From Paraspadella gotoi (taxonomy: Eukaryota; Animalia; Chaetognatha): a stretch of 64,000 nt of DNA. Position 1 is the stretch's first letter. The number at the start of each line of letters is the position of its first letter. The notes beneath the pieces were generated by a model. It ran no database searches and was not told where the DNA came from. It saw only the letters and a list, made by a program, of their open reading frames with translations. The translations under genes and the position numbers were made by a program. The DNA lies in the NCBI GenBank assembly GCA_051294375.1, contig CM119264.1, positions 21,795,582 through 21,859,581 of the forward strand, read 5' to 3'. This document shows, one piece after another, positions 50,328 to 53,300 of this stretch.

Positions 50328-53300
50328 TCAATTTCTTTTTGCATCCCTTGGGTAGAACTCGGCCAGCGTCGACTGAGGAATTCGCTTCAACATCTCCTTC
50401 GGGAAGATTCGAAGAAGCTGCCACCCGATATCGAGGGTCTCTTGGATGGTTCGATTTTCGTAGTGACTCTGAAATTTTAATTGAAATTGGTTGACATATA
50501 CCACACCACCGCCACATAATAAACTTTAAGGCAGTCTACGAAAAACTATCATTTCATAACCTGGGAAATAAAGTTTTTCTCGAATTTACTGAGGAATTCA
50601 AGGTAGAGAAGATCCTCAGACGTAAGGGCCTCTTCTCCCACGACGGCCTTCATCGCCTGGACGTCCTTGCCGATGGCATAATTGGCGTAGAGTTGGTTGG
50701 AGACGTCCGAGTGGTCCTTACGGGTCATTCCTGCGTCAAAACGATTAATATGTAGACTACTAGGCTACAAGTGTGGAGAGAGAGAAATACAGAGCGAAAG
50801 TAAGAGTATTGTTAATACCTTCGCCAATAGCGGATTTCATGAGACGAGAAAGGGATGGCAAGACGTTGATGGGAGGATAAACTTGACGATTGTGGAGTTG
50901 ACGATCGACGTAAACTTGACCTTCCGTAATATAACCAGTCAAATCGGGAATGGGATGGGTAATGTCGTCGTTGGGCATAGTGAGGATAGGAATCTGAGTG
51001 ATGGAACCGTTCCGACCTTCCACCCGACCGGCTCGTTCGTAGATCGTCGCCAAATCTGATTAGTAGTTAAACAGAGAGAATGAAGAAATTAAAAGATTTT
51101 AACCATGAGCAACAAAGTCCTGTTCACTTTGCAATCCGCTCACCAGTGTACATGTAACCCGGAAAACCTCTTCGGCCTGGGACTTCTTCTCGTGCTGCCG
51201 AAACCTCTCGGAGAGCTTCGGCATACGAACTCATGTCCGTCAAAATGACGAGCACGTGCTTTTCACACTGAAACAGAAAAAAGGAGAGAGTGTGGCGATA
51301 TATTCACACCGCTTCACGTCCATCATCGTTCAGCCAATCCTATTGGCTCAGAGGGGGAACACACCATCCCAGGCGTTGTGTTCCATCCACAGTCCTAAAG
51401 ACTTTCCTTGGCAAAGCGAGACCGTCCTCGGGTAACCGCGCCAGTGACTGGAGGCTAGAGCGTAGTGAAAGTTACATACGAAAATTCTAAATGTCAATTA
51501 TGAACGGGGGGGGGTTAGGGTAAGGGGTTAGGGTTAGGGCTATATTTATAGACAGTACTATCCTTATAAAATAAAAAACATTCAAAATAGGCTTTTCTTA
51601 ATTTTAATTACAGATTTAAATTCCTCGTCAAAAGTTGGTAAAAGAAAATATAAATAATTTTTAAAAATCTTTTATTAAGTGGGTTAAAAATGAAAAAAAA
51701 ATTTTTTTATATATTTGATCAACTTAATGAACGAATTATTAAAAAAGAGTTATATTTCTTTATATCAACTTTTCATGACGAATCCAAATCTGCAAAAGAA
51801 TCTTATATAAAAAATATTTTGAAATTGTAACAATTATTGGATTAGTAGTAGTATAAATATGGCCTACTGCGTAAATTGTAAAATTTATTATAATATTGTT
51901 TTATAAATAAATGTTCATTAGTATAATGTTGTTCGTTCCTCACTTTTAGAATTTTAATAAAAGTTAAATTTAGTAAAAATTCTCCAGTGGAGGCATCAAT
52001 GAGGGTCGGAAGCCCCTAAAGCCAACAGTAAGATGCCCCATCCCAATGAGCATCACAGCTGTTGCCATAAGTGGAGAATCTGAGTGATGTCTTGGCCTGG
52101 GGATCCTGTGGCGATATATTCACACCGCCTCACGTCCATCATCGTTCACGTTCAGCTAATCCCATTGGCTAAAAGGGGGAACACACCATCCCAGGCATTG
52201 TGTTCCATCCAGAGTCATAACGATTTCCCTCAAAGCGAGACTGTCCTAGGGTAACCGCGCCAGTGACAGGAGGCGTTAGTGAGGGTCGGAAACCCCCAAA
52301 GCCAACAGTCAACAGCCAACAGCCCCATCCCAATGGGCATCACAGGCAACCCGGCTGTTGCCAAAAGGGGCTAAATTTAGGAGTCAAAACAACGGTTTTG
52401 CTTCTATGTCAGAAGAATTCTAAACTATTAAAGCAACATGAAGGACGCAACCTGGTAGGCCAAAAATTCGGCGGTGGTGAGAGCGAGTCGAGGAGTGATG
52501 ATTCTCTCGATGGTCGGATCGTTGGCCAAGTTCAAAAACAAGCAAACGTTCTCCATGGACCCGTGCTCCTCGAAATCTTGCTTAAAGAAGCGGGCAATCT
52601 CCATGTTCACTCCCATGGCTAAAGAGCGCGAATGTGGATAAAAGTTACAATATACATTTCAGTTATACATACTAATACAGTAACAAAACATACACGGAAT
52701 TTTCCATACCGGCAAAAACGATGGCAAAGTTGTCGTTGTGATCGTCCATGACGGAGGAGTGAGCGAGCTTGACGAGACCCGCCTGACGACAAATCTGGGC
52801 GGCGATGTCGTTGTGAGGAAGGCCGGCCGCCGAGAAGATGGGAATCTTTTGACCGCGGGCGATGGAGTTCATCCCGTCAATGGCCGAAATCCCCGTTTGG
52901 ATCATCTCCTCGGGGTAAACTCGAGACCACGGGTTGATTGGCTGACCCTTTGGGATGAAAAGAGAAAGCAAAGCTAAATGAGAAATACAAAAAACGACCG
53001 CGACGAGAATGGACGCGCCTGTATATCCAAAAAATCTTCGGCCAAAACCGATGGGCCCTTGTCGATAGCCTTGCCGGAACCGTTGAAAACGCGACCCAGC
53101 ATGTCTTCTGAGACGGCCATGCGCAAAATATCGCCCGTGAATTCGCAGGTGGTGTGTTTAGCGTCGATGCCCGACGTTCCTTCGAACACCTAACAAGCCA
53201 AGATGAGGAATGAAGAGTGTGAATGTAAATACTTGTGAAAAATGAGAAAAAGAGTTAAAAACCTGAACTATGGCCTTCGATCCGTTGACTTCAAGGATCT

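Follow-up and report, generated by a model that had tools for sequence, protein, structure and literature searches.

A candidate twister-based retrozyme in an intron of the chaetognath Paraspadella gotoi

The insert and its host intron

The window, a 64,000-nt stretch of the Paraspadella gotoi genome, carries on its minus strand a gene that is presumably that of V-ATPase subunit B, judging from its translation. It was found that one intron of this gene contains a repeat-bearing insert on the plus strand (Table 1). Assembled contigs of one RNA run of the same species (X1) were compared with the window. A 3,187-nt contig agrees letter for letter with the gene in eight listed exon pieces, and the intron, whose ends read CT..AC, is absent from it. 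Thus, X1 holds spliced RNA of the same species, and the ribozyme motif described below is antisense to the host pre-mRNA, as an earlier sequence-only reading had proposed. With the element removed, about 109 nucleotides of intron would be left, similar to the seven neighbouring introns of 71 to 123 nucleotides. In all probability, both window copies of the motif have little or no activity, and the host pre-mRNA is not cleaved by them. Protein searches placed the host among the animals with no close named relative, the best named matches being at 56-58% (Mytilus, Capitella).

The sequence-only reading described two head-to-tail units built around a twister ribozyme. Every structural element that it named lies at the position given, and the two UAA sites are indeed 819 nucleotides apart, or 280 once the 539 nucleotides of an inserted MITE and its target duplication are removed. 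The layout had to be revised: the insert consists of a repeat, a single-copy spacer and a second repeat rather than two whole units, and its 3′ end falls near 52365, not at 52372. No third copy of the unit was found elsewhere in the 64-kb window, either by repeat comparison or with a twister descriptor. The insert has a G+C content of 54%, and the data support a non-coding unit, the longest stop-free frame being 56 codons with none above this. Of 233 sites compared between the two copies, 21 are different, 2 of 33 in the ribozyme core and 19 of 200 outside it (p = 0.75), and there are five indels. At 3 of 12 comparable sites, both copies have the same letter against the X1 majority. These shared letters and the equal decay of core and flanks suggest an old, neutrally decaying insertion derived from one template or subfamily. 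Near the 5′ end of each unit (51333-51349 and 52155-52171), a CCAAT box pairs with its complement in a hairpin that may be a promoter element or an RNA stem.

Table 1. Features of the intron insert (window coordinates; strand left empty where none is assigned)
Feature	Position	Strand	Remarks
Host intron	51268..52451	-	Skipped by a spliced X1 contig
Repeat copy 1 (terminal-repeat-like unit)	51291..52069	+	MITE inserted in the twister P3 loop; same start as the family 5′ boundary (52107)
Twister 1, first half	51408..51455	+	P5 strand, P2′, GA, T1 partner, P1, predicted cut site 51433/51434, P2, T2 partner, P3 5′ strand
AT-rich MITE, 531 nt	51456..51986		8-bp target duplication 51448-55 / 51987-94, 7/8 match
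Twister 1, second half	51995..52025	+	P3 3′ strand, P4, loop L4, P4′, P5 strand
Spacer, single copy between repeats	52070..52106	+	37 nt; internal region or Penelope-type tail
Repeat copy 2	52107..52365	+	Family boundaries 52107 (at least 11 contigs) and 52363 (at least 24 contigs)
Twister 2, type-P5 order	52235..52305	+	Predicted to cut at 52252/52253; this copy has a damaged T2 and P5
Self-complementary P1 segment, 2-nt loop	52244..52251	+	Predicted inter-copy pairing; no other letter listed there in X1

The 539 nucleotides that separate the halves of twister 1 are, as proposed earlier, the MITE and an 8-bp duplication. I take the MITE to be of the hAT type because of the length of this duplication. 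A second copy is present at 15935-16539 with a perfect 8-bp duplication, and the two are 82% identical over 16045-16525. Many X1 contigs cover the MITE. Related pieces were seen at 3787-4138, 16673-17375, 24417-24848, 28422-28956 and 35921-36250, and the family is AT-rich with short terminal inverted repeats and 8-bp duplications. At 51506-51539, the MITE has a G run and three repeats containing TTAGGG in place of about 60 nucleotides that the other copy has near 15985-16045, and this resembles a telomere-like patch at a deletion.

The twister-type fold and its palindromic P1

It was confirmed that a twister-type fold of type P5 is present twice in the insert. The type-P5 permutation was reportedly described by Roth et al. 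in 2014. In each repeat, the elements follow in the type-P5 order: P2′, GA, a pseudoknot partner, P1, UAA, P2, GC, P3, P4 with an 8-nt loop (L4), and P4′. Unit 1 has the 5-bp P5 noted in the sequence-only reading (5/5 pairs, 51408-12 with 52021-25), together with P2 (3/4), P3 (5/7), P4 (3/3), both pseudoknots (T1, 3/3; T2, 2/2) and three possible P1 pairs around a 2-nt loop. Since the MITE sits in the P3 loop, this unit keeps all helices in principle. Unit 2 is more worn, with P5 at 1/5, P2 at 3/4, T1 at 3/3 (one G.U), T2 at 1/2, P3 at 6/7 and P4 at 3/3. The UAA site, the opposing GA, the GC and the L4 ending in AAGC are complete in unit 1, while unit 2 has one change in L4, as had been noticed. 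Both pseudoknots are formed by the X1 majority letters.

Type-P5 twisters in the excerpts of the papers compared (PMC8501958, PMC6154101, PMC10085705) share with these units UAA, P2, GC, P3, P4, the 8-nt L4, GA, both pseudoknots and P5 as an open helix. In contrast, the present units have a C-A at the first P2 pair, a 2-nt P1 loop and an altered T1. The sequence-only reading had seen a compensatory variant in T1. T1 differs from that of the published Schistosoma mansoni twisters at two pairs, on both sides, and still pairs (PMC8501958 Table 1).

A type-P5 descriptor, written from the general twister layout and later compared with the same table, matches nowhere on either strand of the 64-kb window except at these two sites. 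Among 20,000 dinucleotide shuffles of unit 2, none matched the strict descriptor and one matched with a relaxed loop, in a test that used P3 spacing up to 60 nucleotides and is partly post hoc, as the descriptor permits one P2 mismatch because the sequence has one. None of 60 shuffled windows matched. Pattern scans of public viral, metagenome and prokaryote collections revealed no relative: three came back empty, and four with looser patterns gave 102 chance letter-matches. Taken as an outside control, these 102 loci all failed the pairing filter, scoring at most 7 on P2, P4 and P3 pairing compared with 8 for the window units. The Rfam search that had been proposed for the twister gave no twister match, either at the gathering score or at E up to 10 (131 bases). 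Rfam gave no hammerhead match either.

The C-A mismatch of P2 lies beside the catalytic G. It had been interpreted as damage. However, both copies have it and no alternative letter is listed there in the X1 contigs, and it is probably not damage. The mismatch would probably be the family state, to judge from these letters. A family-wide C-A beside the catalytic G may impair cutting.

P1 is self-complementary in unit 2, and also in the family as judged by the absence of listed variants. The calculated energies are +1.5 and +2.7 kcal/mol for a 2-bp hairpin with a tetraloop, -10.0 for the in-register self-duplex and -6.4 for unit 1 paired with unit 2. Since P1 is a palindrome and its 2-nt loop is too short to close in cis, the predicted cleavage probably needs two copies. 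PLE hammerheads with a short palindromic stem III cut as dimers (excerpt of PMC6765202). In the same manner, two ribozymes would swap strands at P1, so that tandem precursors would cut and a monomer circle with one ribozyme would stay protected and stable. On the other hand, the P1 of twisters has been reported, in the parts of the sources compared (PMC8501958 among them), to be dispensable or only two pairs long, and monomer cleavage is therefore also possible. The calculated fold stability is weak, with z = -2.31 for unit 2 and z = -1.33 for one period. Folded as a circle, one period has z = -1.23, with 26 of 200 shuffles as stable, and is 65% paired.

A dispersed family in the RNA contigs

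Is the unit confined to this intron? It was found that 257 X1 contigs align to 52064-52400, an interval that contains one unit. Similarity ends at 52107 in at least 11 contigs (at 52106 in at least two more) and at 52363 in at least 24, and beyond these boundaries there are long unlike flanks with an agreement of about 0.5. The spacer is covered from 52076 to 52106, up to the repeat start, by contigs that span the spacer-to-repeat junction. One contig has 27 other letters before 52076; thus, the family spacer may exceed 37 nucleotides. A lone unit is found in a 2-kb contig, and a 3,737-nt contig starts inside a unit and continues about 3.6 kb past the unit 3′ end. All eight joints listed are skips, and among these none runs back from the unit end to the spacer and none changes strand. 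The summed contig depth per bin is 3,488-29,871 for the units, compared with 176-394 for the exons and 1,018-5,908 for the inner three bins of the MITE; this depth is used here as a sign of presence only and gauges neither level nor copy number, and contigs cannot show strand or circles.

The contig letters bear on the motif as well. At 52233-52241, 52243-52267 and 52281-52286, the variant table gives no alternative letter that reaches 2%. Normal pairing is seen with the majority letter wherever T1, T2 or P3 is weakened in unit 2, and apart from the P2 mismatch all twister pairs and conserved bases are preserved in the majority letters. Six minor motif variants make up 2-10% of the depth, and two of them, in T1 (2.3% and 2.1%), have no listed partner change. 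No compensatory double change or other covariation within the family was seen in the X1 variant table. These data support a dispersed mobile family with both ends fixed and an unvaried core, present in the RNA run.

In several X1 contigs, 80-180 nucleotides are skipped or replaced in the stretch that leads from the 5′ portion of the unit to the ribozyme (52148-52235). This suggests subfamilies with differing middles and common ends and core.

A retrozyme reading, its rivals and known systems

On the sequence evidence, the insert seems best read as a twister-based retrozyme, in which both the twister-type motif and the mobile family are real. It may be, at about an even chance, an old insertion of a dispersed non-coding repeat that is a non-autonomous twister retrozyme, most likely mobilised by a Penelope-type element. 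Predicted cleavage at U^A in two successive units would release an RNA of about 280-300 nucleotides. This RNA would be circularised by a host ligase, and a reverse transcriptase borrowed from another element, most likely a Penelope-like one, would copy the circle into DNA. The two repeats would be pseudo-LTRs, made by copying more than one unit off a single template. The element has since decayed and received the MITE. No helper element was seen in the window. The sequence-only reading had proposed a twister-using analogue of the hammerhead retrozymes, and part of this is supported, namely the twister-type fold, the non-coding unit, the antisense position and a dispersed family in the RNA run. 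Its simple non-LTR tandem picture is incomplete, since the ends are fixed and mutually pairing and the shape is repeat-spacer-repeat.

Known systems are compared here as they appear in excerpts of the cited papers. The units of animal retrozymes are 150-450 nucleotides long, stand in tandem and derive from the pseudo-LTRs of Penelope elements (PMC7229834; bioRxiv 10.64898/2026.07.22.740005), and the present unit, with a 280-nt period and one ribozyme motif per unit, falls in this size range. It resembles the animal non-LTR retrozymes (Cervera and de la Pena 2020; Li, Clavereau and Pollet 2026; same sources) in its non-coding direct repeats of about 280 nucleotides with one small ribozyme motif each, the dispersed family, the probable link to Penelope pseudo-LTRs and the possible dimer-dependent cleavage. 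In contrast, those retrozymes have a type I hammerhead and a G+C content under 45-50%, while the insert has a predicted type-P5 twister, a higher G+C content and fixed, mutually complementary ends. Animal non-LTR retrozymes occur as abundant, highly self-paired linear and circular monomer RNA.

The Naiad Penelope-like elements (Craig et al. 2021, PMC8557442) are alike in having pseudo-LTRs with 30-40-nt tails, often no clear target duplication and no hammerhead. They prefer microsatellites, and the left flank of the insert resembles a GA/TG dinucleotide repeat. The insert differs from Naiads in that it has no ORF and its 5′ end appears fixed, and no sequence link to published Naiads was found. 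In the Naiad/Chlamys/Hydra consensus file (PMC8557442 supplement), no matching twister context was seen for 22 short motifs, in a comparison by eye with few loop variants in which line breaks hide some matches. Penelope-type insertions are often 5′-truncated and inverted according to the same paper, compared with which a single 5′ boundary in at least 11 contigs and the lack of a strand change among the eight listed joints are less typical. The same paper relates that the non-autonomous MRC1 was initially mistaken for an LTR element.

A rival that I consider unlikely is an LTR-type retrozyme (TRIM) in which true LTRs, each with a twister, flank a spacer that has shrunk from an internal region, and mobilisation is by a Gypsy- or BEL-type element. 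Such an element would correspond, in an animal, to the LTR retrozymes of plants. The fixed boundaries with unlike flanks, the repeat-spacer-repeat shape, the lone unit in another contig and the lack of a strand change among the eight listed joints all agree with it. The unit begins with TG and has imperfect inverted ends: its first 10 nucleotides find their best partner among 241 10-mers at the unit 3′ end (all 10 pairs in unit 1, three of them G.U, and 9 of 10 in unit 2). However, the pairing depends on the three G.U pairs, which fit RNA better than DNA ends, and the 3′ end reads TA if it is symmetric with the start, CA only if asymmetric. A PBS-like TGG sits two bases after repeat 1, although it is known from the window copy alone as 52064-52075 has no X1 contig cover. 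The flanks of the insert, seen at one locus only, show an abutting 4-bp match (3/4), and an 8-bp duplication with a 4-nt offset (7/8) fits equally. There is no purine tract before repeat 2, where the longest run in this copy is 5 and is followed by three pyrimidines. The plant LTR retrozymes (Cervera, Urbina and de la Pena 2016, PMC4918200) and animal TRIMs (ta-TRIM, PMC4558846) have in common with the insert, in the excerpts compared, the repeat-spacer-repeat shape, fixed TG-starting ends, a ribozyme inside each repeat, lone repeats elsewhere and a possible 4-bp duplication. The plant elements have a spacer of 300-600 nucleotides, whereas here it is tens of bases, the host is an animal, the ribozyme is a twister and no clear purine tract is present. 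It is unlikely that the insert is at once the first LTR-type retrozyme in animals and the first twister-based retrozyme of any type, a TRIM-sized element whose twister would act only as a dimer, strand-swapped via the palindromic P1, and would give a stable circular RNA of about 300 nucleotides. A Penelope-type origin with pseudo-LTRs is more likely than an LTR/TRIM-type one, and the data do not settle which.

Two further rivals would do without a small circular RNA. A long and autonomous Penelope-like element of the Naiad kind may have left behind these repeats, its pseudo-LTR ends, with the twister processing a long transcript. Naiad bodies are 3.4-4.4 kb (excerpt of PMC8557442), and the stretch of about 3.6 kb by which the 3,737-nt contig continues behind its unit falls within this range, although it may be host sequence. 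Only 37 nucleotides lie between the window repeats, the same spacer letters reach the repeat start in X1 contigs, and no reverse-transcriptase ORF was recognised by eye in the ORF list of the window; this origin is improbable. Equally doubtful is a SINE- or MITE-like repeat whose inherited twister fold is inactive in all copies and which is found in RNA only because host transcripts carry it along. The family-wide P2 mismatch, the strained P1, the missing Rfam match and the lack of core-versus-flank constraint between the two copies would agree with a dead fold, as would the many contigs with long unlike flanks and the fact that many contigs also cover the unrelated MITE. On the other side, no twister pair or conserved base other than the P2 mismatch is lost in the majority letters, and a dispensable or two-pair P1 is on record in the published work cited above. 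Nor does the unit have a tRNA-like head, and no tRNA-headed SINE was found.

The T-variant twisters at the 5′ ends of Perere-3 RTE elements (Liu et al. 2021, PMC8501958) also place a twister with a weak P1 in an animal retroelement. However, a Perere-3 element begins at a type-P1 cut site and an ORF follows, while here a permuted motif lies in the middle of the unit with no ORF downstream. The sequence-only reading had kept the 5′ UTR of a longer autonomous LINE in view as a competing explanation. For a LINE of the RTE type, a 5′ UTR or 5′-end twister is unlikely, as the family ends lie on both sides of the cut site, 145 nucleotides upstream and about 110 nucleotides downstream.

In the excerpts compared, twisters are known in viroid-like circular RNAs, in totivirus tandem ribozyme pairs and at RTE 5′ ends, and the retrozymes in the cited retrozyme papers are hammerhead-based throughout. 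Further literature compared in part comprised PMC7761336, PMC13725137, PMC12542633 and bioRxiv 10.1101/2022.07.19.500677. No genome-encoded twister retrozyme was found in the open-access papers and bioRxiv main texts covered. If the twister retrozyme reading is true, the circle-forming strategy would be independent of the ribozyme class, and eukaryotic twisters would gain a second role beside the trimming of RTE 5′ ends. The family would also be a natural test case for dimer-dependent twister cleavage, would bear on why Naiads seem not to need a hammerhead, and would suggest that Rfam-based surveys overlook a class of animal twisters.

Other repeats and duplications were seen in the window. 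A 2.3-kb segment with a proline/glycine-rich gene is present at 17417-19687 and 22141-24420; the duplicates are 99% identical with frame differences, and may reflect a recent duplication or an assembly artefact. A tandem gene duplicate with 88.5% identity lies at 34366-35783 and 37241-38666, and I assume that it is a prostaglandin-reductase-like gene. Two more dispersed low-complexity repeat families occupy 58789-59246 and 62017-62513, and 36300-36549, 39953-40198 and 61003-61446, respectively.
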